Source: Rhizomicrobium sp. (GTDB taxonomy: Bacteria > Pseudomonadota > Alphaproteobacteria > Micropepsales > Micropepsaceae). Taken from it: 64,000 bases of DNA. Positions within the stretch are counted from its first letter, which is position 1, and every line of letters starts with the position of its first letter. Below, one piece after another: positions 3,740 to 18,222 of the stretch. The notes beneath the pieces are model-generated. The model had not been told where the DNA came from, made no database searches, and was given only the letters and a program-made list of their open reading frames with translations. The stretch is taken from NCBI GenBank assembly GCA_036512455.1, contig DATCAT010000014.1, positions 157,205-221,204 of the forward strand, in the 5' to 3' direction. Made by a program: the position numbers and the translations under genes.

Positions 3740-5021
3740 TGGCGCGCCAGGCCTATCGCGCAGCGGTCTTTCATCTCCTGCACGATCCCGCGGCCGGCGC
3801 GGCGCCGCTCGACGGCTATTTCGCCGATGGCGCCTTGCTGATCGAGGACGGCTTCGTCGTCCAAGCCGGCGCCTGGGCGGATATCGGGCCGAAACTCGGA
3901 TCCGATGTCGCCGTCACGCATTTTCCACAGGCCCTGATCGTTCCCGGCTTCGTCGACGCCCATGTCCACTATCCGCAGCTCGACGTCATCGCATCGCCGG
4001 CGACGCATCTCCTCGACTGGTTGAACAACCACACCTATCCCTCGGAGACGCGCTTCGCGGACCGCAAAGTCGCCGACGAAGCGGCGGGCTTCTTCCTCGA
4101 CGAATTGCTGCGTCACGGCACCACCTCGGCGCTGGTCTACGCCACCGTGCACAAGGCTTCGGTCGAGGCGCTGTTCGAAGCCGCGCTGGCGCGCAACATG
4201 CGCCTCGCCTCCGGCAAGGTGCTGATGGACCGCCACGCACCGGACGGCCTGCGCGACAACGCAGAAACCGGTTATCGCGACAGCCGCGATCTCATCCGCG
4301 CCTGGCACGGCAAGGGGCGGCTCTCCTACGCCGTCACGCCGCGCTTTGCGGTGACGTCGACGCCGGCGCAACTCGAAAGCGCGGGCCGCCTGCTCAAGGA
4401 AAATCCCGGCGTCCTGCTGCACACCCATCTTGCGGAGAACCACGAAGAGATCGCCGAAGTCCGCCGCCTGTTTCCCGATTGCGCCGATTATCTCGGCGTC
4501 TACGAGAAATTCGGCCTGGCGACGAACCGGTCCGTCTTCGCGCATTGCCTGCACCTCTCCGACAGCGAGTGGCAGCGCATGGGCAAGAACGGCTGCGCCG
4601 CCGCGTTTTGTCCGACATCGAACCTGTTCCTCGGCAGCGGCCTGTTCGATGCCGCGAAGGCGTATCACAACCAGGTCTGCACCGGCCTCGGCAGCGATGT
4701 CGGCGGCGGCACGAGTCTGTCGCTGCTGCAGACGATGAACGAGGCGTTCAAGGTCGGCCAGCTGCGCCGGCACATGCTCGATCCGTTCCAGCTCTTTTAT
4801 CTGGCGACGCTGGGCGGCGCGAAAGCCTTGAAGCTGGACGCCCAGATCGGCAATTTCGCGCCCGGCAAGGAGGCCGATTTCGTCGTGCTCGATCTGGCGG
4901 CGACGCCGCTGCTGGCGCGGCGCATCGCGGTTTCGTCTTCGCCGGCCGAGCAGCTCTTCGCGCTCGCCATGCTGGGCGACGATCGCGCCGTCGCGCATAC
5001 CTACATTGCCGGCGCGTGTGC

Positions 5022-5651: not shown

Positions 5652-6307
5652 GAGCGAAACAGCCTCGTATATTGGGTTTCGTGTTGGATCGACGTCCATT
5701 CGACGACCGGCGCTGCCGAGCCGACATCGCGGGTATCGCGGCGCAGCGCGTCATCCGCCGCCGCGATGACCGCCGGCTGCAACGCCGCGAGCACGCGCTG
5801 TCCCGCTGTCTGTCCGAGCGGAATGGTGCGGATGCCGGCGGAAATCAAATTGCTCACCACCGCGTGGAAGAACGCGATCAGCGCCGGCCTGAGCGGCACG
5901 CCCGATGAAGCGGCGGCAATGCCGACGGCGGAAGGGTAGGGCACCCATCCCTCCGGCAGAGCCACCGCGCCCCACGCGGCGCGGAACGCCGTCATGAAGG
6001 CTTGGCCCTGCGCCTTGTGTTCGAGCTCGAACTCCAGCGTCGGCACGAAGGCACGGGCTTCTTCCAGGGCATCCGCCAGCGCGGCGCGATCCTTTGCTTC
6101 GTAGGCGGCGCGCAGCATCGCGCCGTTTACCGGACCGAACTCATGCGCCAGTCCGCTCGCGATCCAGCCGCGCAGGCTGTCCTCGTCGCGCACCAGTTCC
6201 GCTTCGACGGCGTATTCGATGCCGTGCGAATAGCTGAAGGCGCCGACCGGAAAGGACGGCGACAGCCAGCTCATCAGCCGGTAGAGCGCGTCGCCGTCAG
6301 TGGTCAT
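5648..6307 (-). CDS. ureF: Urease accessory protein UreF
   Basis: [16 protein letters not shown] at the N-terminus, [11 protein letters not shown] at the C-terminus. Start taken at MTTDGD (6307). Confidence 0.95.
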
Positions 6308-6779
6308 GATCGTGTCCGTGATGATGCGCATGGCCGGTCGCTTCGGCGCTGTAAGCACCGCCCTCGGGCGAGAACGGCGCTTGGCGGCGATGCACATGTG
6401 CGCCGAGACCTTCGATCATCTCGACAAGGACATGATCGTCGCGGATGCGCAGGGAGCCATTGTCCAGCACCTGCACCGGAATATGCCGGTTGCCGATGTG
6501 CCAGGCGATGCGTGCGGTTTCGGCGGCCGAATGCGTGTCAATGTCGGCCACCGGCTCGTCGGCGGCGATGACGGCCAAGACGCCGCCGCCCTCCAGCGCC
6601 AGACCTTCGCCGTGCTGCAGGATGCGCGGCTTATCCAGGTCGAGCAGGAAGGCGTTGCCTGCCGAGTCCGTCAGCCGCGTCCTGCGGCGGTAGCGGTCGT
6701 CGAAGGTCAGCAGCACCGAACCCGCGCCGTCCTTCGCGTTCCACGTCCCGGGGGCCAGAACTTTCGTCGCGCGTTTCAT
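6297..6779 (-). CDS. ureE: Urease accessory Ni-chaperone UreE
   Basis: AWHIGNRHIP, PFSPEGGAY and His-rich tail [11 protein letters not shown]. Confidence 0.95.
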   Translation of the reverse strand: MKRATKVLAPGTWNAKDGAGSVLLTFDDRYRRRTRLTDSAGNAFLLDLDKPRILQHGEGLALEGGGVLAVIAADEPVADIDTHSAAETARIAWHIGNRHIPVQVLDNGSLRIRDDHVLVEMIEGLGAHVHRRQAPFSPEGGAYSAEATGHAHHHGHDHDH

Positions 6780-6781
6780 CG

Positions 6782-8491
6782 TCAGAACAGGAAGTAGCGC
6801 TGCGCCAGCGGCAGGACGCTGGCCGGTTCGCAGGTCAGAAGCACGCCGTCGGCGCGCACCTCATAGGTTTCGGGATCGACTTCGATTCGGGGCGTGGCGC
6901 CGTTCAGCACCATGTCCGTCTTGCGCACCGTCCGCGTTCCCGACACCGCGATGGTCTGGCGGTGGAGGCCAAGTTTGCTGCGAATACCGGCATCCTGCGC
7001 CGCTTTCGACACGAAGGTGAAATTGCTTGCCGCGCCGGCGCCGCCGAAAGCGGCGAACATCGGCCGGTAATGCACCGGCTGCGGCGTCGGGATCGAGGCG
7101 TTGGGATCGCCCATGGCGGCTGAGGCGATCATGCCGGCCTTCAGCACCAGGTCCGGCTTCACGCCGAAGAACATCGGCTTCCACAACACCAGATCGGCGA
7201 TCTTGCCGACCGCGATCGAGCCGACATGCGCCGCGATGCCGTGCGTGATCGCCGGATTGATGGTGTATTTGGCGATGTAGCGCCTGACGCGGAGATTGTC
7301 GTTGTCGCCTTTCTCCTCGGGCAGCCGGCCGCGCTGCTTGCGCATCTTGTCGGCGGTCTGCCAGGTGCGGATCAGCACTTCGCCGACCCGGCCCATCGCC
7401 TGGCTGTCGGACGAGATCATCGAGAAGGCGCCGATGTCGTGCAGGATGTCTTCCGCCGCGATGGTTTCCTTGCGGATGCGGCTCTCGGCGAAGGCGACAT
7501 CCTCCGGAATGCGGCGGTCGAGATGGTGGCAGACCATCAGCATGTCGAGATGCTCGTCGATCGTGTTCACGGTGTAGGGCCGCGTCGGATTGGTGCTGGA
7601 CGGCAGCACGTTCATTTCTCCGGCGAGCTTGATCACGTCCGGCGCATGGCCGCCGCCGGCGCCTTCGGTGTGGAAGGCATGGATCGTGCGGCCGGCGATG
7701 GCCGCGATGGTGTCGGCGATGAAGCCGCTCTCGTTCAGCGTGTCGGTGTGGATCGCGACGCCGACATCCATGCGGTCGGCGACGTTCAGGCAATTGTCGA
7801 TGGCGGCGGGCGTGGTGCCCCAATCCTCGTGCAGTTTGAGCGCGCAGACGCCGGCTTCGATTTGTTCGATCAGGCCCTGGGGTTGCGAAGCATTGCCCTT
7901 GCCGAATAGGCCGATATTGACCGGCATGCCGTCCGCCGCCTGCAGCATGCGCGCGATATGCCACGGCCCCGGCGTGCAGGTGGTGGCGCTGGTGCCTTCC
8001 GCCGGCCCGGTGCCGCCGCCGAGCATGGTGGTGACGCCGGAGGCAATGGCGTCGTCGGCCTGCTGCGGGCAGATCCAGTGGATATGCGCGTCGATGGCGC
8101 CGGCGGTGAGAATGCGGCCTTCGCCGGCGATGATCTCCGTGCCCGGCCCGATCACGATGTCGACGCCCGGCTGGACGTCGGGATTGCCCGCCTTGCCGAT
8201 GGCGGCGATGCGTCCGTCTTTCAGCGCGACGTCGGCCTTGACGATGCCCCAGTGGTCGACGATCAGCGCATTGGTGATCACCGTGTCGACGGAGCCCTGC
8301 ACGCGGCTGCGCTGGCTTTGCCCCATGCCGTCGCGGATCACCTTGCCACCGCCGAATTTCACCTCCTCGCCATAGATCGTCCTGTCGGCCTCGACCTCGA
8401 TGATGAGATCGGTGTCGGCGAGGCGCACACGGTCGCCGGTCGTGGGGCCGTAGATGCGGGCATAGGCTGCGCGGTCGATGGTGAAGGCCAT
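6782..8491 (-). CDS. ureC: Urease subunit alpha
   Basis: [58 protein letters not shown] at 8491 overlaps the ureB stop. Confidence 0.99.
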
Positions 8492-8799
8492 CACAGCGCT
8501 CCGTTCACACGGCCCTTAAAGCCGTGAATGGTGCGCGAGCCCGCATAGGGCACCAGCGTCACCTCGCGTTCCTGTCCGGGTTCGAAGCGCACCGCGGTGC
8601 CCGCCGGCACGTCGAGCCGCATGCCTTTGGTCTTGTCGCGGTCGAACACCAACGCGTCGTTCACTTCGAAGAAGTGATAATGCGAGCCGACCTGCACCGG
8701 CCGGTCGCCGCTGTTGGAAACCTTGAGCGTCAGCGTTGGGCGCCCCTCATTGAGGATGAGCGCGCCGGCGGCGGGAAGGATTTCTCCGGGGATCATCAT
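8491..8799 (-). CDS. ureB: Urease subunit beta
   Basis: [37 protein letters not shown]. Confidence 0.98.
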
Positions 8800-8803
8800 C
8801 GCC

Positions 8804-9106
8804 TCAGCGGATGGGGTTGTGAACGGTGACGAGCTTCACGCCGTCCGGGAATGTCGCTTCGACCTGCACTTCGTGGATCATCTCGGCGATGCCGTCCATG
8901 ACCTGGTCGCGGGTGAGAACGCCGGCTCCTTCGGCCATCAGAGCGGCGACGCTCTTGCCGTCGCGCGCGCCTTCGACGACGAAGTCGCAGATCAGCGCGA
9001 TGGCCTCGGGATAGTTCAGCTTGACGCCGCGCTCCAGGCGGCGGCGCGCCACCATCGCGGCCGTGGCGATCAACAGCTTGTCCTTTTCGCGCGGCGTCAG
9101 ATGCAT
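8804..9106 (-). CDS. ureA: Urease subunit gamma
   Basis: [36 protein letters not shown]. Confidence 0.98.
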
Positions 9107-9110
9107 GGCG

Positions 9111-10007
9111 TCAAATGCTCCAAAGGCGCGGCATCACCGGCGGCAGGCCCGCCGCGGCCGCGCGCAGGCCGCACCAGATTTTCGCGAAGGCGTCGCGCAA
9201 TTCGAGCGTGTTGCCGCCAATGAAGCGCACGATCAGCAGGTCGCGGAACGACGTCGCCCCGATGCGCAGGCCTGCGCCGGCGACGTCCGCCGCGATCGCG
9301 CGCGCGAGCCTAAGAAATTGCGCCGCCGTCGCGCCGGCATAGATCAGCGAACCGTACGCCGCCGCGCCATCGAACGTCGCCTTCTGTGTCAGCAATCTGT
9401 CGATGTCGCCTTCCATGTGCAGGGCATCCTTCCAAACCAGTTCGCCGGATGGGCCGCGAAATTCCCAGGCGTCGTGGACAAGGCCGGCGCTCATTTTCTC
9501 GCAGCGCGCGGTTCGCCCGAAGACCACGATCCCGCCGCCGAGGAAGCGGGCGCCGTCGTCCAGACGCACCTGCGTCCGGCGCCGCAGCCGCGCGGCATCG
9601 AACAGGATGGTCTCCTGCGGCAGATATTCCAGCCACGCATCGCGCCCGGCGCGCAACGCCGTCTCGACGAGGCAATCGGGCCCGAGCGAGCGATAGACTT
9701 TCTCCGCCGCCTGTCCGATCACCGTCGCCTGCGCGCCGTCGCCGAGCGCCACGCCGATGTCCAGCCGGTCGCCGCCGACCAAGCCGCCGGAGACGCAGGC
9801 GATCGCCGCCTGAAAAATGTCGCCGCGCGTCTGATACGGAAACAGGACGCGCAACGGTTGCGCCTGATACAGATCGGCCAGGCGCGTGGAACCATCGGGC
9901 GCGCGCCGGAGCGCAAGGCGGACCTCGCCGCCGCGTGGCGCGGCGACAGGCGTCTTCGTCCACGGCCCATAGGCGACATTGCCGACGGTGTTTTCGCTGG
10001 CGCGCAT
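9111..10007 (-). CDS. ureD: Urease accessory protein UreD
   Basis: [30 protein letters not shown]. First gene of the ure operon. Confidence 0.93.
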
Positions 10008-10116
10008 GCGTCAACGGTAGTGGAGGGCGCCTGGCCTGACAACGCCGCGCCGCGCGGGCAGCGTGACCAATTCTTGGGCACTCGACTTTTGCGCTTGCCC
10101 GAAATAACAAATTGGG

Positions 10117-11139
10117 ATGACAGACCACCGCGGCTTCATCGCCGGCCTGCCCAAGGCCGAACTGCACATGCATCTGGAAGGCAGCCTGGAGCCCGAGCTG
10201 ATGTTCGCGCTGGCCCGGCGCAACAAAATCGCCATTCCGTTCAAGAGCGTGGAGGACATCCGCGCCGCTTATAGTTTCACCAACCTGCAGGACTTCCTCG
10301 ACATCTACTACCAGGGCGCCGCCGTGTTGCGCGGCGCGCAAGATTTCTTCGACCTCACCGATGCATACCTCACACGCGTCGCCGCCGACGGCGCGCGGCA
10401 TGTCGAGCTGTTCTTCGATCCGCAAACGCATACCGCGCGCGGCATTCCGTTTTCCGTCGTCGCCGACGGGATGCTCGGCGCGCTGGCAGAGGCGGAAAAG
10501 AAACACGGCGTCACCGCGAAATTGATCCTCTGCTTCCTGCGCCATCTCGACGAGGACGATGCGCTTAAGACGCTGAAATCCGCCGAGCCTTATCTCGACC
10601 GCATCGCCGGCGTCGGATTGGATTCCTCGGAACTGGGTCATCCGCCGTCCAAGTTCAAGAATGTCTACAAGGCGGCGCACGAGCGCGGGCTCAAGCTCGT
10701 CGGCCATGCCGGCGAGGAGGGGCCGCCGGACTATGTCTACGAAGCGCTCGATGTGCTTCGCATCGATCGCCTCGATCACGGCAACCGCTCGCTGGAGGAT
10801 GCGGCGCTGGTCGCGCGCCTGGTACGCGCGCAGATGACGCTCACAGTCTGTCCGCTGTCGAATTTGAAACTCTGCGTCGTCAACGACATGAAGAACCATC
10901 CCTTGAAGCGCATGCTCGATCTGGGCCTGCGCGCCACCATCAATTCCGACGACCCGGCCTATTTCGGCGGCTATCTCAACGACAATTACAACGCGGTGGC
11001 GGACGCGTTGTCGCTGACGCGCGCGGAAGTGGTCACGCTGGCGAAAAACAGTTTCCTTGGATCGTTTCTTGGCGAGCCGGAAAAGGCGCGCCACGTCGCG
11101 GCCGTCGATGCGTATGCGACGGCGAATGGCGGCTTGTGA
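10117..11139 (+). CDS. add: Adenine/adenosine deaminase (ADA family; probably adenine-specific)
   Basis: PKAELHMHLEGSLEP, GLDSSELGHPP, HAGEEGP, TVCPLSN, NSDDPAYFGG. Confidence 0.9.
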   Translation: MTDHRGFIAGLPKAELHMHLEGSLEPELMFALARRNKIAIPFKSVEDIRAAYSFTNLQDFLDIYYQGAAVLRGAQDFFDLTDAYLTRVAADGARHVELFFDPQTHTARGIPFSVVADGMLGALAEAEKKHGVTAKLILCFLRHLDEDDALKTLKSAEPYLDRIAGVGLDSSELGHPPSKFKNVYKAAHERGLKLVGHAGEEGPPDYVYEALDVLRIDRLDHGNRSLEDAALVARLVRAQMTLTVCPLSNLKLCVVNDMKNHPLKRMLDLGLRATINSDDPAYFGGYLNDNYNAVADALSLTRAEVVTLAKNSFLGSFLGEPEKARHVAAVDAYATANGGL

Positions 11140-11265
11140 TTGTTTGTGCTGCGCATGGCTGACTCCGTTTTTCGCGTGTTGAAGCGCACGCCGGAAAAAT
11201 CGGCGGGGCGCTTCGAACAGACCTGTGGGGATTTACGGGAGATGGGGTTTGGACCGACTCGGTTC

Positions 11266-11284
11266 AAGGGGTCGGTGCTGGCCG
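11266..11284. repeat. Left target-site duplication (AAGGGGTC) plus left terminal inverted repeat
   Basis: Read directly from sequence; matches the right end. Confidence 0.88.
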
Positions 11285-11341
11285 AATTAGGCCACTCTGC
11301 ATTCAAATTGAGCCACTCGTAGCGAAACGATTCGTACCACG

Positions 11342-11839
11342 CTACCGCGTCTGACCTGTATCAGGGCTAGGCGCGCCCGGTGCTTCATCTGCCGATGGTA
11401 CCGACGTGTCTGGCAAATCGAGTCTCTTGAAAAAATCGTTGTTACAGATTTGACCAACGTATGGGACAAAGCCGTCTCTCGCACCGGGTGCGCCGTTGAC
11501 AACACCTTCGAGCTTGGCATCAACGATCATCGAATTGCCGTTGTGCAGCGTTATCGTGAGATAGCAAATTGCAGTCACGTAGCAGTTGGGTTGGGTGAGA
11601 CAATCAACTGATTCGTAACGGACGAACTGGGAGCCGCCCACAGTCGTTGTTTGTGGCATTCCGAGCGTTGCTGTAATCGTGTCTATACTTTTCCCAACTA
11701 GAAGCGGCCCGACAACGGGATAAGACTCGATTGGACGTTCCTGTGTAAGGCGAGCTTGCACGATAGATGCGCAGGCTGACAGAAACGAAAGAGCGACCAA
11801 AGATGAAAGCATAATCTGTATGAGAGGGTTTCTTATCAT
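11342..11839 (-). CDS. Hypothetical lipoprotein (IS passenger)
   Basis: Hydrophobic signal ending in lipobox-like LSAC. Three further Cys. ATG directly abuts the upstream TGA (TGAATG). Confidence 0.65.
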   Translation of the reverse strand: MIRNPLIQIMLSSLVALSFLSACASIVQARLTQERPIESYPVVGPLLVGKSIDTITATLGMPQTTTVGGSQFVRYESVDCLTQPNCYVTAICYLTITLHNGNSMIVDAKLEGVVNGAPGARDGFVPYVGQICNNDFFKRLDLPDTSVPSADEAPGAPSPDTGQTR

Positions 11840-12307
11840 TCACAAATCCTCCGAAAACCCCACGTTCACGATCAATCCGCTCTGAATCGCCGTCTGATAC
11901 CGGGCACCTACGCGCAAGCGAAACTCATGGCTGAAACCATATTCCAGCCCCGCGCCCGCCCTCACGCCGAACGAGGACACGTCACCCGGAATGCTCACGT
12001 ATTCCGCCCCTATTGTTCCGAAGAGCGAAACACGATTCCATTCACGGAATCGCCAGTTGGCGTAGGCATCCACATAGCCACCGTTGAATCGCACCGGAAG
12101 AAATTGAGAGCCCACATACCCGGCTTCCAAATCCAGATACCGATTCAGGTGGAATCCAGCGCCGCCATCATAAGCCTGAAAAGTAATTCCGCCCGCTGAG
12201 ACGAAATCGTAGTCGGCTGCAAGATATGGCCCAAAGTCGTCGGCGGATGCGCGTAAGGGCCATAGGCAAACGAGGCCAAGTACCGCCACCAATTTCAAAA
12301 TTCTCAT
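11840..12307 (-). CDS. Small outer-membrane beta-barrel protein (porin/OmpA-like; IS passenger)
   Basis: Signal peptide MRILKLVAVLGLVCLWPLRASA. Alternating aromatic strands (GAGFHLNRYLDLEAGY, GAGLEYGF, RLRVGARYQ). Purine-rich RBS before ATG 12307. Confidence 0.7.
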   Translation of the reverse strand: MRILKLVAVLGLVCLWPLRASADDFGPYLAADYDFVSAGGITFQAYDGGAGFHLNRYLDLEAGYVGSQFLPVRFNGGYVDAYANWRFREWNRVSLFGTIGAEYVSIPGDVSSFGVRAGAGLEYGFSHEFRLRVGARYQTAIQSGLIVNVGFSEDL

Positions 12308-12337
12308 ATCCCCATCCCCTCTGGTGATCGGGGAGTT

Positions 12338-12496
12338 AGAAAACCTAGCTAGGCAAGGTCGCACACGGCTTTAGGCTCCTAAGCCCTGAACATACCCGTA
12401 TGCCTCCTCGACCATAAAGGTTGAGGAGTGCTGGTGACGGCGGCACTTACGCCGCCTAGCTAGGGGTTTCTACGCCCCGGACCGGTGTGTGCACCG
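12338..12496 (-). ncRNA. Putative structured RNA leader (chain of hairpins); possibly related to phage C4/a1b1-type regulatory RNAs
   Basis: Hairpins at 12404-12428, 12439-12456, 12463-12478 and 12483-12496. CCTAGCTAGG occurs twice (12344, 12455). Family link and strand are inference. Confidence 0.35.
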
Positions 12497-12767
12497 ATCT
12501 AGGAGAAATATGTCACAGAACTGTAAGTTGCGAAATCCTATTTCCAACTTTTCTACGTTGCGTAGTAACATCAAACTATGTCCACACGACTACCCGGCAG
12601 CGAAGCCATACCGATTCCATTTCCAGAACCCGGCTGCTGGATGAAGGAAAATCAGTCCAAAAATTTCGGCGAGTTTCAATGTGGGCTTTGTAGGGGCAAT
12701 TTCTACAAAACGGCGGATAACAGGCTCTACGTCTATTTGGAGATTATGACGTGGAAGGACGTGTGTA

Positions 12768-13019
12768 TTAAGACTTACATGCCACTTCGCCTGCCGCATG
12801 AGGCAGAAAGCATTTTGTACATACGTTGGGAGGAAACAGGGGTGCGCCTGCGGCAAGACGATCATCCCGCCATTGATGCAACTTGGCAGCCGCGAGATTG
12901 AGTTCCTCATCGGTCATTTTCTCCGCTCCGCCGATGTAAGCCACACCCAATTCCTCGAAGCGCCGTTTTAGGCGCTCACTCACAAATTCGATAGCCATGA
13001 TGATATCTGTTTCGTCCAA
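12768..13019 (-). CDS. Hypothetical protein (IS passenger)
   Basis: 83-aa ORF with TTG start just downstream of a sigma70-like promoter. No family recognised; overlapping alternative ORFs exist. Confidence 0.35.
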   Translation of the reverse strand: MDETDIIMAIEFVSERLKRRFEELGVAYIGGAEKMTDEELNLAAAKLHQWRDDRLAAGAPLFPPNVCTKCFLPHAAGEVACKS

Positions 13020-13037
13020 TTAATCCGTACACAGACT

Positions 13038-13065
13038 ATTATCTCACGATGCAGATAAAAGTCAA
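13038..13065 (-). promoter_or_regulatory. Sigma70-like promoter TTGACT-N16-GATAAT with internal palindrome TTATCT-N8-AGATAA
   Basis: Read on the minus strand just after the transposase stop. Confidence 0.55.
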
Positions 13066-13074
13066 GAAATCCAT

Positions 13075-13965
13075 CTAGCCAACCCCGCCATCAATTACCC
13101 GGAACCGTCCCACCATCCGCCCTTGCGGCGCAGGCGTCACCACGCCATCCAGCGCCGCCTCGACAAGCTCGCTGATCGTCCAGACATGATCGACAACGCC
13201 CAACTGCATCGCAGGCGTGATTCGTAGAGCCTCATGGACGCGACAAAGATTGTAGTGCGCCACATACAGCGCCACCGCTGCGCAGTGATTCAAATAGGTC
13301 TTGCTGAAGCCGTTTGTCAGCCGCGTGAAGCGGCGCTGGCTCATGCGCAGTGTGAGGTTCTGACGCTCGACATAAGAGGTGCTGATATGCGTCGGCACGC
13401 CATGTACGGCGTTGCGGGTTACCTTTACTACCTGACCCGGCGAATAGCGTCGCGCAGCTTCCGGGCTACCGTTTACCGCGTAATGTTTTTCCACAACGCC
13501 GTGCGCGCAGTTCTCGCCAAAGGCGTGAGCAATGGCCCACGGGTAGGCGTTGAAGCCGTCCGTTGAAATCTCAGGCGAGCCGATGACGCGGGCGCGCAGA
13601 TCGTCCGCGAAGTCCTGCGTATTGATCGCGGTACGCTTGCCGGTCTTGTACGTGATGATCGCTTTCGCGGAGTCGGCCAGTGCAATGAAGGTGTATTGAT
13701 CCCCGACCATGTCGCTGTCATCGGGCTTCACAAGGCGCTGCTTCTTGCCGACGAACGCCCAGATTTCGTCGAGTTCGATCCGGTTGACGTGAAGGCCGCG
13801 CATCATGGCGCTGTGCAGCTTCAAGCAGCCTTCGCCGACGCGGACGCCTAGCGACATAACCGTCCCGCGATTGACACCAGTGAGTCGTTCGGTTGCGCGG
13901 ATGCTGACACCGTCGCAAAGGGCGGAGATCGCTGCCACCTGTCGCTCGCGAGGAAGAACGTTCAT
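13075..13965 (-). CDS. IS1-family DDE transposase (single ORF, N-terminal HTH, no zinc finger)
   Basis: HTH VSIRATERLTGVNRGTV; catalytic ELDEIWAFVGKK, ISTDGFNAY and STSYVERQNLTLR; C-terminal YNLCRVHEALRITPAM. Start taken at MNVLPRE (13965). Confidence 0.9.
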   Translation of the reverse strand: MNVLPRERQVAAISALCDGVSIRATERLTGVNRGTVMSLGVRVGEGCLKLHSAMMRGLHVNRIELDEIWAFVGKKQRLVKPDDSDMVGDQYTFIALADSAKAIITYKTGKRTAINTQDFADDLRARVIGSPEISTDGFNAYPWAIAHAFGENCAHGVVEKHYAVNGSPEAARRYSPGQVVKVTRNAVHGVPTHISTSYVERQNLTLRMSQRRFTRLTNGFSKTYLNHCAAVALYVAHYNLCRVHEALRITPAMQLGVVDHVWTISELVEAALDGVVTPAPQGRMVGRFRVIDGGVG

Positions 13966-13982
13966 TCTGTCACTCTCAAAGT

Positions 13983-14056
13983 TGGCTCCCCGGCTGGGTG
14001 TCGATCCCAAGTCTTCCGGCTGTAAGTCGTCTGTCCTACCGTTAGACGACCGGGGA
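13983..14056 (-). ncRNA. tRNA-like RNA (pseudo-tRNA; Gln-type acceptor and D arms, nominal UAC anticodon, collapsed anticodon stem)
   Basis: 74 nt: TCCCCGG TC GTCT AACGGTA GGAC A GACGA CTTACAG CCGGA AGAC TTGGG ATCGACA CCCAG CCGGGGA G CCA. Perfect 7-bp acceptor stem, encoded CCA, D and T stems intact, anticodon stem has only 2 Watson-Crick pairs. Confidence 0.8.
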
Positions 14057-14072
14057 GAATTCGCATCCTATA

Positions 14073-14144
14073 GCTATCATATATGATAGCTCGCTGATCT
14101 TGTCAACTGAAAAGTATCAGATATGATAGCTTTCATATCTGATA
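14073..14144. promoter_or_regulatory. Divergent promoter/operator region with palindromes
   Basis: GCTATCATATATGATAGC (14073-14090). TATCAGATATGA-N6-TCATATCTGATA (14115-14144). Minus-strand TTGACA (14106-14101)-N17-TATATG pointing at the tRNA-like RNA. Confidence 0.7.
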
Positions 14145-14155
14145 GTGGAGGATCA

Positions 14156-14395
14156 ATGGGTTACCCGAAAACGCAGCCGGACTGGGAGACGCGGGCGGCG
14201 GCTTTCATCAAGGCCGAGATACTGAAGGCTGAGATCACCTACGAAGAGCTAGCCAAGCGAATGAAACGGCACGGATTCGCCGAAACGAAGGCGTCTGTGA
14301 CCAACAAGCTATCCCGGGGTACTTTCCCCGCCTCGTTCTTTCTCGCGGCTATAGCAGCCTTGGAATTGCCCGGGGTAAGCTTGGAGGATGTCTGA
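14156..14395 (+). CDS. Small HTH DNA-binding protein (DUF6471-like)
   Basis: GGAGG RBS at 14147-14151. ITYEELAKRMKRHGFAETKASVTNKLSRGTFPASFFL resembles DUF6471/XRE-like HTH proteins found next to IS transposases. Confidence 0.8.
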   Translation: MGYPKTQPDWETRAAAFIKAEILKAEITYEELAKRMKRHGFAETKASVTNKLSRGTFPASFFLAAIAALELPGVSLEDV

Positions 14396-14441
14396 GAGGC
14401 GTGAGTTTGTCGCCTGAGTCTCAAATCGTCAGAGATGCAGC

Positions 14442-15257
14442 ATGAGCGACAAGCCCGACCCCACCACAGGCAAGACCCAAGGCAGAGAGCCCCCAAATCC
14501 ACCGCTCCCGACGAGCCATTCGAGTCCCGATAGCCATCAGCATCACCAGTTGAGCGCACACAAGGGCTATGAAACCGCAAAACACCTCGCCAAGCGCCTG
14601 CGTCAGGTTGCTTTGGAGTTGTCCGTTTCGGATTGGCTCATGGTTTTCTTCACTGCCGTCATTGCTGCGGCCACTGTATGGAGCGCCGTAGTGGTTCGTG
14701 GGCAACAGGTCATCATGCAAGGTCAACTGGACGAAATGAGAAATGAGCAGCGAGCTTGGGTCTACGCTGACATTGATCCCAATGCGTCTCTCGTCATTAA
14801 CGGCTGGGATGGCGTAGTCCCGCTGCAAATTGTTCTCCACAACGTAGGAAAATCGCCCGCCACTCAGATTCTTACGTTCGCGCATCTCTATCCGATCAGC
14901 GGTAGCGGGCCAAACGTTTCTGTCCGCGATTACCCGAGTCTGTGCTACGCGAAAACCTATTCCGAGATGGGTTCCCACATCTTCCCCGGCCAAAGTATTC
15001 CGGCAACGCGGTCCCTTAGTCAGGCCGAAACCGGTTCGTGGGATGTGACGCCGGTTTATCCCGGCACGGTCACTTTCCAAATCCGAGGATGTATTCTGTA
15101 CAAGAGCGGAGCCGATCCAACGCCCCACCACACATGGATCAACGCTAGCATTATCAATGCCAATGGATGGCCGATGTTCGCTATCGCTAAGGGTGATCGA
15201 ACGAACACCCCCATCCGATTGGAATTCACTTTGGTGAAAGCCGAAGTTGATGACTAA
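14442..15257 (+). CDS. Hypothetical single-pass membrane protein (IS passenger)
   Basis: Disordered N-terminus, one TM helix (WLMVFFTAVIAAATVWSAVVV), coiled segment QLDEMRNEQRAWV, then a beta-rich domain. Confidence 0.65.
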   Translation: MSDKPDPTTGKTQGREPPNPPLPTSHSSPDSHQHHQLSAHKGYETAKHLAKRLRQVALELSVSDWLMVFFTAVIAAATVWSAVVVRGQQVIMQGQLDEMRNEQRAWVYADIDPNASLVINGWDGVVPLQIVLHNVGKSPATQILTFAHLYPISGSGPNVSVRDYPSLCYAKTYSEMGSHIFPGQSIPATRSLSQAETGSWDVTPVYPGTVTFQIRGCILYKSGADPTPHHTWINASIINANGWPMFAIAKGDRTNTPIRLEFTLVKAEVDD

Positions 15258-15356
15258 TGCGACTGCTGTCGCCAACGCGCGCATCCCGATCATCTAGGAA
15301 TGCCCGCCGCTGGTTGCGATGCCAAAAGAACAAAACCAGCCACTGAGGGGCAAAAC

Positions 15357-15375
15357 CGGCCAGCACCAAGGGGTC
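15357..15375. repeat. Right terminal inverted repeat plus target-site duplication (AAGGGGTC)
   Basis: Read directly from sequence; matches the left end. Confidence 0.88.
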
Positions 15376-15541
15376 GGAAAAAATAAATTTTGCGATTTCT
15401 TATCCCATGAAAATTTCGCGCGGAACCGCGGAGTGCGCGGAGATTTTCTCGGGCTGATGTGGATAGACCTTTGGGTGCAGCGCGGCGAACGATATTTTCT
15501 TTCAACGCAAATAAAGTTTGGAAGGGGAGGGGAAGAGGGAT

Positions 15542-17005
15542 TTACCGAAACGCCGGCTCGGTGAAGCTGCGCAGCTTGCGCGAATGCAGGGTGCCGGCGC
15601 GGGCCTCCTCGCGCATGAATTCCAGCGCCTTGATGCCGATCTGCAGATGCTGGCCGACACGCTCTTCGTAGAAGGCGTCCGCCATGCCGGGCAGCTTGAT
15701 CTCGCCGTGCAGCGGGCGGTCCGAGACGCAGAGCAGCGTTCCGTAGGGCACGCGGAAGCGATAGCCGTTGGCGGCGATGGTCGCCGATTCCATGTCGATG
15801 GCGATGGCGCGGCTCTGATTGAAGCGCACCGCGAGCTCGTCGAAGCGCAGCTCCCAATTGCGGTCGTCGGTGGTCACGACCGTGCCGGTGCGCAGGCGCT
15901 CCTTCTGCACCTTGCCCTTGAGGCCGGTCACCGACTCCACGGCTTTGGCCAGTGCGAGCTGCACTTCGGCGATGGTCGGAACCGGGATCGCGAGCGGCAA
16001 GACGGAGTCGAGCACGTGATCGTCGCGCAGATAAGCGTTCGCCAGCACGTAGTCGCCGAGCCGCTGGCTTTGGCGCAAGCCGCCGCAGTGGCCGACCATC
16101 AGCCAGACATGCGGCCGCAGCACGGCGAGGTGATCGGTCGCGGTCTTGGCGTTCGACGGCCCGACGCCGATGTTGACTAGCGTGATGCCTTCGCCATCCG
16201 GCTGGACAAGATGATAGGCCGGCATTTGCGGCATCTTGGCCAGTGGCGGCGCGCTCGGCTCCTTGCCTTTCTCGGTGACGCGCATGCCGGGCTCGATGAA
16301 TTTCACGGCGCGGCCGTCTTCGAGTTCCTTGAGGCCATAGCCGATGAACTCGTCGATGTAGCGCTGGTAGTTGGTGAACAGCACGAAGCTCTGGAAACTT
16401 TCCGGCGTGGTGCCGGTGTAGTGGCGCAGCCGGTGCAGCGAATAATCGACGCGCTCGGCGGTGAACAGCGACAGCGGCCCGCTTTCGTCGCCGATCCAGC
16501 GCCGTCCGTCGACCACGGTGTCGTCGGCGGCGTCGAGGCGGGGCAGGGGGAAGTGTTGCGCCAATTCCAGCCGCTGCTCCGCCGACATCGCCGACGCCGC
16601 GCGCTCCACCGCGAAGGTCAGTGGAATGGGGGTGTGGCTCCTGCCGACATAGATGTCGGCCTTGTTGTTCTGGGTCAGCAGGCTCAGCTGCTCGATCAGG
16701 TAATTGCGGAACAGGCGCGGCGCGGTGATCGTCGTGCCGTAGAAGCCCGGACGCGGCACCTTGCCGAAGGCGAGCGTCGTCGAGCGCGGCACCGATTCCA
16801 CCTCGATGCCGAGATAGGGATAGACCGGGTCCTTGGTCGCCTTGCGTTTGCCTTTGGAGAACGCCTCGAAATTCTTCTCGATTTGCGAAATGGCGGCGTC
16901 GTAGAGCTCGATCAGGCGGTCGACGACGTCGTCGACCGTGTCGCAGCGCACGAGATTGGTCGCCGGGACTTTTCCGAATTTGGGACCGTGCGCGGGGCTA
17001 GCCAT
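15542..17005 (-). CDS. amn: AMP nucleosidase
   Basis: ERVDYSLHRLRHYTGT, FVLFTNYQRY, QMPAYHL, NIGVGPSNAKT, AIDMESATIAANG, TEPAFR. Start taken at MASPAHG. Confidence 0.95.
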   Translation of the reverse strand: MASPAHGPKFGKVPATNLVRCDTVDDVVDRLIELYDAAISQIEKNFEAFSKGKRKATKDPVYPYLGIEVESVPRSTTLAFGKVPRPGFYGTTITAPRLFRNYLIEQLSLLTQNNKADIYVGRSHTPIPLTFAVERAASAMSAEQRLELAQHFPLPRLDAADDTVVDGRRWIGDESGPLSLFTAERVDYSLHRLRHYTGTTPESFQSFVLFTNYQRYIDEFIGYGLKELEDGRAVKFIEPGMRVTEKGKEPSAPPLAKMPQMPAYHLVQPDGEGITLVNIGVGPSNAKTATDHLAVLRPHVWLMVGHCGGLRQSQRLGDYVLANAYLRDDHVLDSVLPLAIPVPTIAEVQLALAKAVESVTGLKGKVQKERLRTGTVVTTDDRNWELRFDELAVRFNQSRAIAIDMESATIAANGYRFRVPYGTLLCVSDRPLHGEIKLPGMADAFYEERVGQHLQIGIKALEFMREEARAGTLHSRKLRSFTEPAFR

Positions 17006-17013
17006 TCGGCCTT

Positions 17014-18222
17014 CTAAAGAAAGGATGTCCCGACGGGAAGGGGTGGCAAGCCAAGGTGAGTCGCCACCGACTGGCCGATATCGGCGAAGGTGCTGCGCTC
17101 GCCGATGGAGCCCGGCGCGACGCCAGGGCCGAAGGCGAGCACCGGCACATATTCGCGCGTGTGGTCGGTGCCCGGCCAGGTCGGGTCGCAGCCATGGTCG
17201 GCGGAAAAGATCGCCAGGTCTCCGGGGCGCAGGCCGGCCTGCAATTCCGGGATGCGCCGGTCGAAGGCCTCGAGCGCCGCGGCATAGCCCGCAATGTCGC
17301 GGCGATGACCGTACAGCGTGTCGAAGTCGACGAAATTGGCGAAGATGATCGCATCGTCCGGCCCCGTCTTCACACACTCCATCATGCGGTCGAAGACTTC
17401 CTCGTTGCCGAAGGCCTTGACGTATTTGGTGATGCCGCGGGCGGCGAAGATGTCGGAGATTTTCCCGATGCCGACGACTTCATGTCCGGCCTGGGCATAG
17501 CGGTCCAGCAGCGTCGGCGCGTGCGGCGGCATGGCGTAGTCGTGGCGGTTGCCGGTGCGCAAGAACTCGCCGGGCTTCTCGCCGACGAAGGGCCGCGCGA
17601 TGACGCGGCCGATGTTGTAGCCGTCCACCAGTTCACGCGCGATATGGCAGATCTTGTAGAGCCGCTCCAAGCCGAAATGGCTCTCATGCGCCGCGATCTG
17701 GAAAACCGAATCGGCGGAGGTGTAGACGATCGGCTTGCCGCTTTTGATATGCTCTTCGCCGAGGGCATCGAGGATCTCGGTTCCCGACGCGTGGCAGTCG
17801 CCCAGGATGCCGGGGATTTCGGCGCGTTCGATGAAGGCCTTGGTCAGCGCGGCGGGAAAGGACGGCACGGTGCGCGGGAAGAAGCCCCACTCATAGTCGA
17901 CCGGCAGGCCCATCATTTCCCAGTGGCCGCTCGGCGTGTCCTTGCCGAGACCGAGCTCGGCCGCATAGCCGTATTTTCCCACGATGCGGTCCGGCGCGGC
18001 GATCTCGACCGCCCGGTCGGCGCCCTTGGCCGCCTGGCCCAGGCCCAGCGACAACAGGTTGGGAATGTTCAGCGCGCCCTTGTGCCCGTTCGCCCGCTTC
18101 AGCCCTGCGGCACAGGCCTTGGCGATGTGTCCGAAGGTGTTGGCGCCGGCGTCGCCGAAGCGCTCCGCGTCGGGCGCCGAGCCAAGCCCGAAAGAGTCGA
18201 GAACGCCGATGATCGCGCGCAA
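17014..18222 (-). CDS. deoB: Phosphopentomutase
   Basis: [58 protein letters not shown]. Probable TTG start at 18222. Confidence 0.95.

Follow-up and report, generated by a model that had tools for sequence, protein, structure and literature searches.

What is the 4.1-kb tract that separates the convergent add and amn genes in a Rhizomicrobium genome, and why does it lie at this particular point? The locus belongs to a 64,000-nt stretch (hereafter the window) of contig DATCAT010000014.1 in assembly GCA_036512455.1, and an initial annotation, made from the letters and their open reading frames (ORFs), had read the tract as an intact IS1-family transposon with exact ends, an 8-bp duplication, a central single-ORF DDE transposase and five passenger ORFs. 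As set out below, the tract (11274-15367) is very probably an intact passenger-carrying insertion sequence (IS), i.e., a "transporter IS" (tIS), of the IS1 family and specifically of its branch with a single-ORF, zinc-finger-less transposase. It interrupts one copy of a dispersed host repeat, at an 8-bp position where other members of its clade are also inserted.

Boundaries of the element and its empty sites

The inverted repeat formed by the two ends reaches 20 nt at 80% identity in a repeat search of the window, with the left terminus reading GGTGCTGGCCG (11274-11284) and the right terminus CGGCCAGCACC (15357-15367). Such ends prove nothing on their own, because the terminal 11-mer occurs in dozens of copies in this GC-rich genome, and it was accordingly rejected as evidence for the boundaries. 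BLAST searches against the genome itself (4.74 Mb in 64 contigs) revealed that a single host repeat of about 215 bp is divided between the sequences on either side, with one half at 11182-11273 and the other at 15376-15519. When joined by a script, these flanks are collinear with at least 13 uninterrupted copies of the repeat in the same genome, of which those on contigs C25 and C62 read GGTTCAAGGGGTCGGAAAAAATAAA. The 8-mer that stands at both borders of the element, AAGGGGTC, occurs there once. The uninterrupted copies thus serve as paralogous empty sites, and because they carry the 8-mer once, both the element boundaries and the 8-bp duplication are real. The initial annotation had asked for an empty site in close relatives; it was found in paralogous copies of the repeat rather than at orthologous loci.

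The two borders share an apparent 11-mer, CAAGGGGTCGG, which had been explained as the duplication running into the termini. This account holds: the 11-mer consists of the 8-bp duplication and a chance identity with the IS termini. In a related element (L037), whose flanks are unlike the IS termini, the duplication is exactly 8 bp and the ends are GG...CC, which fixes the length of the duplication and supports chance identity as the source of the longer repeat. The element differs in composition from its surroundings, with a GC content of 54.6% versus 64.3% for the window, and the cargo is lowest at 50 to 55%. The placement between convergent add and amn genes is borne out by the Pfam matches of both (Table 1). 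This neighborhood is variable within the genus: in one relative (G016, C6:20456-21936, L023) add and amn are directly adjacent and the repeat is missing, and in another (G018, C16:579500-591603) they are about 10.7 kb apart.

A preferred target within a host repeat

The interrupted repeat is an intergenic and modular sequence, with a left module (CTGTGGGGATTTACGG..GGACCGACTCGGTTCAAGGGG), a right module (..GCGAACGATATTTTCTT..CGCAAATAAA) and a variable middle. The genome holds 16 left and 23 right modules, some of which stand alone; examples of the repeat are found at C25:168761-168961, C62:75919-76111 and C15:56998-57207. Two identities considered for it, an RNA of known family and an ordinary terminator, were rejected, as there was no Rfam match, its RNA fold did not exceed that of shuffled sequences significantly (z-score, -1.5) and a terminator scan left it unflagged. 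The insertion 8-mer abuts a 15-bp near-palindrome, GGACCGACTCGGTTC.

Insertions at exactly this 8-bp position are found in the window, at C9:22286 of the same genome (as a remnant) and in the related loci L024, L026, L027 and L069. L026 and L027 come from two other Rhizomicrobium species and possess different ends and cargo, and both are inserted at the same position of a homologous repeat; their duplications, GCCCCCTT and CCCCCCTT, are followed by GAACCGAGTCGGTC, and the window reads GACCCCTT on that strand. The C9 remnant (C9:22146-22678; L106 1147-1679) derives from another IS1-like element, unlike that of the window, and retains a C-terminal piece of the transposase (about 260 bp) and the end GGTAGTGTCCTAATTTGCCC. 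This end adjoins an incomplete copy of the repeat at the same 8-bp site (ACGGGGTC), and an intact copy lies directly next to it. Orientation-specific insertion was rejected, since L024 and the C9 remnant are inverted relative to the window, L026 and L027. More broadly, when 201 genomes of the genus were searched for a junction pattern made up of an IS end, NNCCCCTT and GAACCGAGTC, there were 14 occurrences, spread over 10 genomes, and the reversed control pattern was retrieved 0 times. The outer flanks of these 14 junctions differ, and their ends fall into at least four subtypes. Given about 16 repeat copies in 4.7 Mb, independent insertions cannot have met at one 8-bp position so often by chance.

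The recurrent junction could in principle be the outcome of a process other than target choice, in which the element carries the whole repeat or one half of it along, or in which occupied copies have spread by recombination or gene conversion. The modularity of the repeat, with some modules found alone, and the rearranged C9 remnant beside an intact copy are compatible with such a history. Yet the site is common to at least four end subtypes, to elements of 2.2 to 4.1 kb, to different cargo and to both orientations, and the duplication made by each insertion reproduces the form of the 8-mer found at that site (GACCCCTT, GCCCCCTT, CCCCCCTT, CACCCCTT and CGCCCCTT). Further, many family members lie in unrelated sequence without an attached repeat, and the uninterrupted copies have the 8-mer a single time. 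We therefore regard the spread of preformed junctions as very improbable and favor repeated choice of the same target. The observation that tells against a strict form of this target choice is that about half of the resolved elements of the genus lie outside the repeat (L018, L019, L028 and L030), and for this reason the 8-mer is to be seen as a strong hotspot and not as an obligate target.

Among more distant relatives, the elements of L032, L034, L060, L077 and L079 adjoin the termini of other family members without intervening sequence, which likewise suggests that targets have been used more than once. Three of these (L034, L077 and L079), from uncultured alphaproteobacterial metagenome-assembled genomes (MAGs), have one conserved target of their own, TGTACA..TGTTCT..GTTCGCAATATGTTCTTTTG/GGGGGTGG, with a GTTC-N7-GTTC motif that resembles the alphaproteobacterial SOS box. 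Each of the three abuts the end of another family member, as tandem insertions at one site.

The transposase and its family

The transposase has an N-terminal helix-turn-helix (HTH; residues 10-45) and a DDE core with the catalytic residues D66, D136 and E200, which are invariant in an alignment of the window protein with 21 relatives. All 22 aligned sequences match the Pfam domain DDE_Tnp_IS1 (best E value, 8e-11). Profile comparison by hhalign with InsB of Escherichia coli IS1A gave a probability of 97.9% (E value, 4e-13), in which D66, D136 and E200 fall on the acidic triad of IS1, and comparison with the HTH of InsA gave 66%, with residues 10-45 aligned to InsA residues 54-89. The initial annotation had invoked an IS1 subgroup without the zinc finger; consistent with this, hhalign found no counterpart of the zinc-finger part of InsA (residues 1-53), and the 22-sequence alignment has no conserved cysteine pairs. 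Instead of the two-ORF insA/insB layout with its frameshift, one uninterrupted ORF of 296 aa spans both the HTH and the DDE core. Judged by these alignments, the transposase is an InsA-type HTH and an InsB-type DDE core in one frame, without frameshift or zinc finger. The ends are in line with this relationship: those of the window element begin with GGTGCTG at both termini and those of E. coli IS1A with GGTAATG and GGTGATG, the common form being GGnnnTG. The closest transposases (84 to 89% identity) come from Rhizomicrobium MAGs, which makes Rhizomicrobium the most likely source of the window, and homologues with 38 to 40% identity in isolates, from Hoeflea, Acidiphilium and Mesorhizobium plasmids, bear the PGAP label "IS1 family transposase."

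Two points weigh against the placement in IS1. The window transposase's own match to DDE_Tnp_IS1 is marginal (26.7 versus a cutoff of 24.1), and with the NCBIfam IS1 model NF033558, which was trained on canonical IS1, it scores 55.5 bits versus a cutoff of 100. The comparison with IS1 covers the Pfam and NCBIfam models, the proteins and ends of E. coli IS1A and the PGAP labels of homologues. These shortfalls could be taken to favor IS1595, the sister family of IS1 with passenger-carrying members and 8-bp duplications, in which cargo-bearing elements are common, and the NCBIfam IS1595 model does give a weak match (19.7 bits versus a cutoff of 75). Yet neither the IS1595 zinc ribbon nor a match to Pfam DDE_Tnp_IS1595 was found in the window transposase or in any of the 22 aligned sequences, whereas a genuine IS1595-family transposase nested in the relative L018 (8632-9576, plus strand) scores 131 bits with that domain. 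Together with the family-wide DDE_Tnp_IS1 matches, the alignment to InsB and the IS1A-like GGnnnTG ends, this makes membership in IS1595 very improbable, and we retain the assignment to IS1.

Ends, sizes, hosts and cargo of the relatives

To delimit related elements, we used a blind scan that required GGnnnTG upstream of the transposase gene, CAnnnCC downstream of it and, after this, a perfect repeat of the 8 or 9 nt just before the left end. The scan gave one solution in five loci (relatives from the genus and class and a 35%-identical paralogue in the same genome), in about 35 of 76 loci from public genomes and in a third paralogue on contig C38. Nearly every locus with both ends on the contig was solved, and about 40 elements were thus resolved. 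Their ends have the form GG(T/C)nnTG, and the duplication is 8 bp in nearly all and 9 bp in a few. The homologous transposases thus use the same kind of GGnnnTG ends, with 8-bp duplications, as the initial annotation had expected of IS1-family members.

The resolved elements with a near-full-length transposase measure 2.0 to 6.3 kb around a transposase gene of 0.9 kb, and hence extra DNA is the rule in the clade of the window element; a few shorter matches of the scan span 0.8 to 1.25 kb. The hosts include Alphaproteobacteria, Myxococcota, Acidobacteriota, Nitrospirota (Nitrospira), Bacteroidota and others. Clustering of the ORFs of 37 elements revealed that the transposase alone is universal, while the cargo differs: L027 carries a PD-T4-5/AbiD-like defense protein (3926-4618, minus strand) and L019 a proteasome-subunit-like protein (5804-6589, minus strand). 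The window element has the organization of a tIS in that all its ORFs lie inside one pair of ends, as the duplication and the paralogous empty sites show, and its relatives hold other cargo within the same ends.

Further members of the family deserve mention. A protein of 260 to 300 aa without a known family is common to nine elements (representative, L018 6028-6942, minus strand), and in L020 (G029; 7629-12465) about 3 kb of inserted DNA interrupts the gene for the IS1-like transposase. The genome of the window itself has two other intact IS1-like passenger-carrying elements, whose transposases are 35 to 36% identical to that of the window. One (C15:8913-11385; L002 339-2811) is 2,473 bp long, has GGTAGTGGGTCC ends and a AAACGGCG duplication, and is equipped with a tRNA-like leader whose sequence differs from that of the window; the other (C38:57312-60948; reverse strand of L108) is 3,637 bp long, with ends GGCACTGTTACAG and duplication ATGTGTTG.

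A probable DUF6471 control module and a tRNA-shaped leader

The transposase gene is transcribed divergently from a gene for a DUF6471 HTH protein, and the region between them contains two predicted promoters, TTGACA-N17-TATATG on the minus strand for the leader and transposase and TTGTCA-N16-TATGAT on the plus strand for the DUF6471 gene. The likely start codon of the latter is the ATG at 14156, which follows a GGAGGA ribosome-binding site and lies downstream of a promoter-like site at 14100-14127; the listed ORF began at 14123. Three palindromes of the TATC-N6-GATA type are found at 14075-14088, 14115-14128 and 14131-14144. A DUF6471 gene is present in five resolved elements (the window, L025, L026, L028 and L034) and in the contig-end locus L021, always divergent from the transposase gene. 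In these intergenic regions, a TTGACA is flanked by two palindromes in a conserved layout with lineage-specific sequence: TATCATATATGATA in the window, TATCATATACGATA in L034 and TCTCATATA(C/T)GAGA in L021. As lineage-specific palindromes over a promoter are the signature of a cognate repressor and operator, the DUF6471 protein is probably an element-encoded repressor and part of the control module rather than cargo.

A match to the Rfam tRNA family (13986-14056, 33.7 bits) lies on the transposase strand between this region and the transposase gene. It has a decayed anticodon stem, encodes its CCA and ends about 17 nt before the transposase ATG; ARAGORN made no tRNA call on it. Relatives have equivalent tRNA-like matches 120 to 260 nt upstream of the transposase gene. 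Ten such leader sequences fold as a cloverleaf with compensatory changes at 14 of the 18 pairs; CCA is encoded in 7 of the 10, and the anticodon loops are often irregular. A model built from these ten sequences (R1) retrieves 18 loci in which the leader precedes the transposase gene in the same sense, and gave no match in L025, L026, L028, L034 or the myxobacterial branch. A role of the tRNA-shaped RNA as a guide for target choice, comparable to the bridge RNAs of IS110, was ruled out by L026, which occupies the same site yet has no leader: it lacks an R1 match, and its gap between promoter and transposase gene is too short to hold one. We tentatively suggest, with low confidence, that the leader might act as a signal for RNA processing and so define where the transposase mRNA begins.

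The decay of the anticodon arm bears on whether the element is still mobile. Its perfect duplication and intact ends suggest a recent insertion. What speaks against recent or current mobility is that the element is present in a single copy in its genome and that no orthologous empty site was found in the sampled relatives of the genus, all of which are rather distant. One could thus view it as a structurally intact but immobile fossil, kept because an intergenic repeat tolerates insertion, with the single copy and the decayed arm as its marks. We consider this rather unlikely in light of the full-length ORF with every invariant residue of the family, the perfect duplication, the presence of both ends and the occurrence of close relatives (84 to 89% identity) over several species at different loci.

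Cargo genes

The initial annotation had counted five passenger ORFs. All five exist and look real, with corrected coordinates for two, the DUF6471 gene and the β-barrel gene, and it is the status of the former as a passenger that probably does not stand. The coordinates are collected in Table 1.

Table 1. Features of the IS1-family element and its surroundings (coordinates of the window)
Feature	Coordinates	Strand	Description	Evidence
add	10117-11139	+	Flanking gene, adenosine deaminase; outside the element	Pfam A_deaminase, E 1e-90
Left half of interrupted host repeat	11182-11273	+	Last 8 bp are the left duplication	BLAST, alignment with 13 uninterrupted copies
Left target-site duplication	11266-11273	+	AAGGGGTC	Direct reading
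Element	11274-15367		4094 bp	Between the two AAGGGGTC copies
Terminal inverted repeat downstream of transposase gene	11274-11293	+	GGTGCTGGCCGAATTAGGCC	Repeat search; same end type in L019, L025, L026, L028
Lipoprotein gene	11342-11839	-	Cargo; predicted lipoprotein, 165 aa, signal peptide, lipobox LSAC	Translation
β-Barrel gene	11840-12307	-	Cargo; small outer-membrane β-barrel protein, 155 aa from ATG 12307, signal peptide MRILKLVAVLGLVCLWPLRASA	Pfam OMP_b-brl, 32.1 bits vs cutoff 28.7
Structured leader upstream of β-barrel gene	12321-12481	-	Long-range arms 12329-12354 / 12454-12479	Inverted-repeat search
Small-protein gene	12768-12998	-	Cargo; conserved small protein, 76 aa	Homologue search
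Transposase gene	13075-13965	-	Single-ORF IS1-family DDE transposase, 296 aa, ATG start, roughly central	Pfam DDE_Tnp_IS1, hhalign
tRNA-shaped leader	13983-14056	-	Derived from tRNA-Val(UAC)	Rfam tRNA
Divergent promoter/operator region	14072-14144	both		Palindrome search, promoter scan
DUF6471 gene	14156-14395	+	HTH protein, 79 aa from ATG 14156	Pfam DUF6471, 72.5 bits
Membrane protein gene	14442-15257	+	Cargo; 271 aa, one predicted membrane helix	Two distant homologues, 32-35% identity
Terminal inverted repeat upstream of transposase gene	15348-15367	+	Reverse complement is GGTGCTGGCCGGTTTTGCCC	Repeat search; same end type in L019, L024, L026, L028
Right target-site duplication	15368-15375	+	AAGGGGTC	Direct reading
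Right duplication copy, then right half of host repeat	15368-15519	+		BLAST, alignment with uninterrupted copies
amn	15542-17377	-	Flanking gene, AMP nucleosidase; outside the element	Pfam AMNp_N and PNP_UDP_1

The β-barrel gene, whose listed ORF had extended to a GTG at 12364, is followed directly after its stop by the start of the lipoprotein gene. The lipoprotein is an orphan, with no match in Pfam, NCBIfam, PADLOC or PHROG and no homologue among 5.8 billion proteins. The leader of about 160 nt that precedes the β-barrel gene has no Rfam match. An 80% identical copy is found upstream of another lipoprotein gene (C47:140165-140320), and the two differ by compensatory changes in the arms, CCTAGCTAGG/CCTAGCTAGG versus CCTCAACTAG/CTAGTTGAGG. 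Further copies are present in six relatives from the genus (G006, G009, G010, G011, G019 and G020), and the leader precedes genes for small exported proteins.

The gene for the 76-aa protein has a promoter-like site at 13038-13065 on the minus strand, retrieved by the promoter scan. Its ten homologues (67 to 83% identity) have IS1595-type transposases as neighbors or belong to a phage-like series of small ORFs, and the protein thus appears to travel on several kinds of mobile elements. In two loci (L124 1993-4249 and L127 365-2621), the homologues are found about 1 kb downstream of an IS1595-family transposase, together with an HTH_3 gene. The 271-aa protein matched no family in Pfam, NCBIfam, PADLOC or PHROG. 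A defense or phage module was rejected as an identity for the cargo, as the ORFs of the window have no PADLOC or PHROG matches.

A model for insertion and control

These observations can be assembled into a model. The transposase would bind the terminal repeats (GGTGCTGGCCG...) and insert the whole 4.1-kb unit through an 8-bp staggered cut into the copy of the 215-bp repeat between add and amn, at AAGGGGTC beside GGACCGACTCGGTTC. This site is a preferred target, occupied in both orientations by relatives of other ends, sizes and cargo. Expression of the transposase would proceed from the TTGACA-N17-TATATG promoter, whose overlapping palindromic operators are probably bound by the divergently encoded DUF6471 protein in a repressor role like that of InsA, and the transcript would pass through the tRNA-shaped leader, possibly as a processing signal. 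The true cargo would then comprise the 271-aa membrane protein on one side and, on the other, the mobile-element-associated small protein followed by the leader, β-barrel and lipoprotein operon.

We are evenly divided on the full form of this proposal, namely, an IS1-family passenger-carrying clade that combines near site-specific insertion at one 8-bp position of a genus-wide repeat, as a safe haven, with transposase expression coupled to a tRNA-shaped leader and a DUF6471 repressor. Targeting of a repeat by an IS1-family element is unusual for the family and apparently undescribed. In the searchable literature, with ISfinder and TnPedia outside the search, none of the three features (repeat hotspot, DUF6471 operator module, tRNA-shaped leader) was found described for IS1-family elements, nor was any paper found on tRNA-like leaders in IS, and to our knowledge neither near site-specific insertion in a repeat nor such a leader or repressor is known in that family.

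A new tIS of the IS1 family is useful for annotation, but it is an expected kind of object. The added value lies in the picture of the family, in which one set of ends and an 8-bp duplication recur across phyla with varied cargo. With its classical DDE enzyme, a natural target that is defined and cargo that can be exchanged, the system offers a tractable case for the evolution of target choice in IS1-type elements, and a handle on the spread of small cargo genes in soil bacteria.

Comparison with known systems

With E. coli IS1 the element shares a homologous DDE core, a homologous InsA HTH, ends of the form GGTnnTG and a duplication of 8 to 9 bp. A further likeness would be an element-encoded HTH repressor at the transposase promoter, InsA in IS1 and putatively the DUF6471 protein here. 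IS1 differs in being 768 bp long without cargo, in its -1 frameshift between InsA and InsB (the InsAB' fusion) and in the zinc finger before the HTH. The window element, at 4,094 bp, has a single ORF without a zinc finger, and in its transposase the second D and the E stand about 45 residues farther apart; its regulator is encoded by a gene of its own that is transcribed divergently, and a tRNA-shaped leader is present. As for targets, IS1 prefers AT-rich DNA and is not known for one defined site. The ISMhu11 subgroup of IS1 (ISfinder/TnPedia) has a single ORF, no zinc finger, sizes up to about 4.6 kb with passengers and duplications of about 8 bp, and the likeness to the window element is one of architecture. 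We know of no fixed repeat target, tRNA-shaped leader or DUF6471 partner in it.

The tIS concept, applied for example to elements of the IS1595 family (Siguier et al. 2009, as cited in PMC3129680 and PMC7986276), covers this organization of one transposase and one pair of terminal repeats around unrelated passengers, at the border of IS and transposon. The IS1595-family tIS differ in that they belong to another transposase family, with a zinc ribbon and a different Pfam domain. The closest parallels to the target are elements of other families: ISPpu9 and ISPpu10 of the IS110 family target repetitive extragenic sequences (PMC12288879). Along with IS1397 and ISKpn1 of the IS3 family, they share with the window element a fixed position in a short, many-copy intergenic repeat, which can be viewed as a safe haven. 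The enzyme of the IS110 members is a serine-like DEDD recombinase that works with a guide RNA; here, in contrast to these repeat-targeting IS3 and IS110 elements, a classical DDE enzyme makes an 8-bp duplication, inserts in both orientations and has placed about half of the resolved insertions in the repeat.

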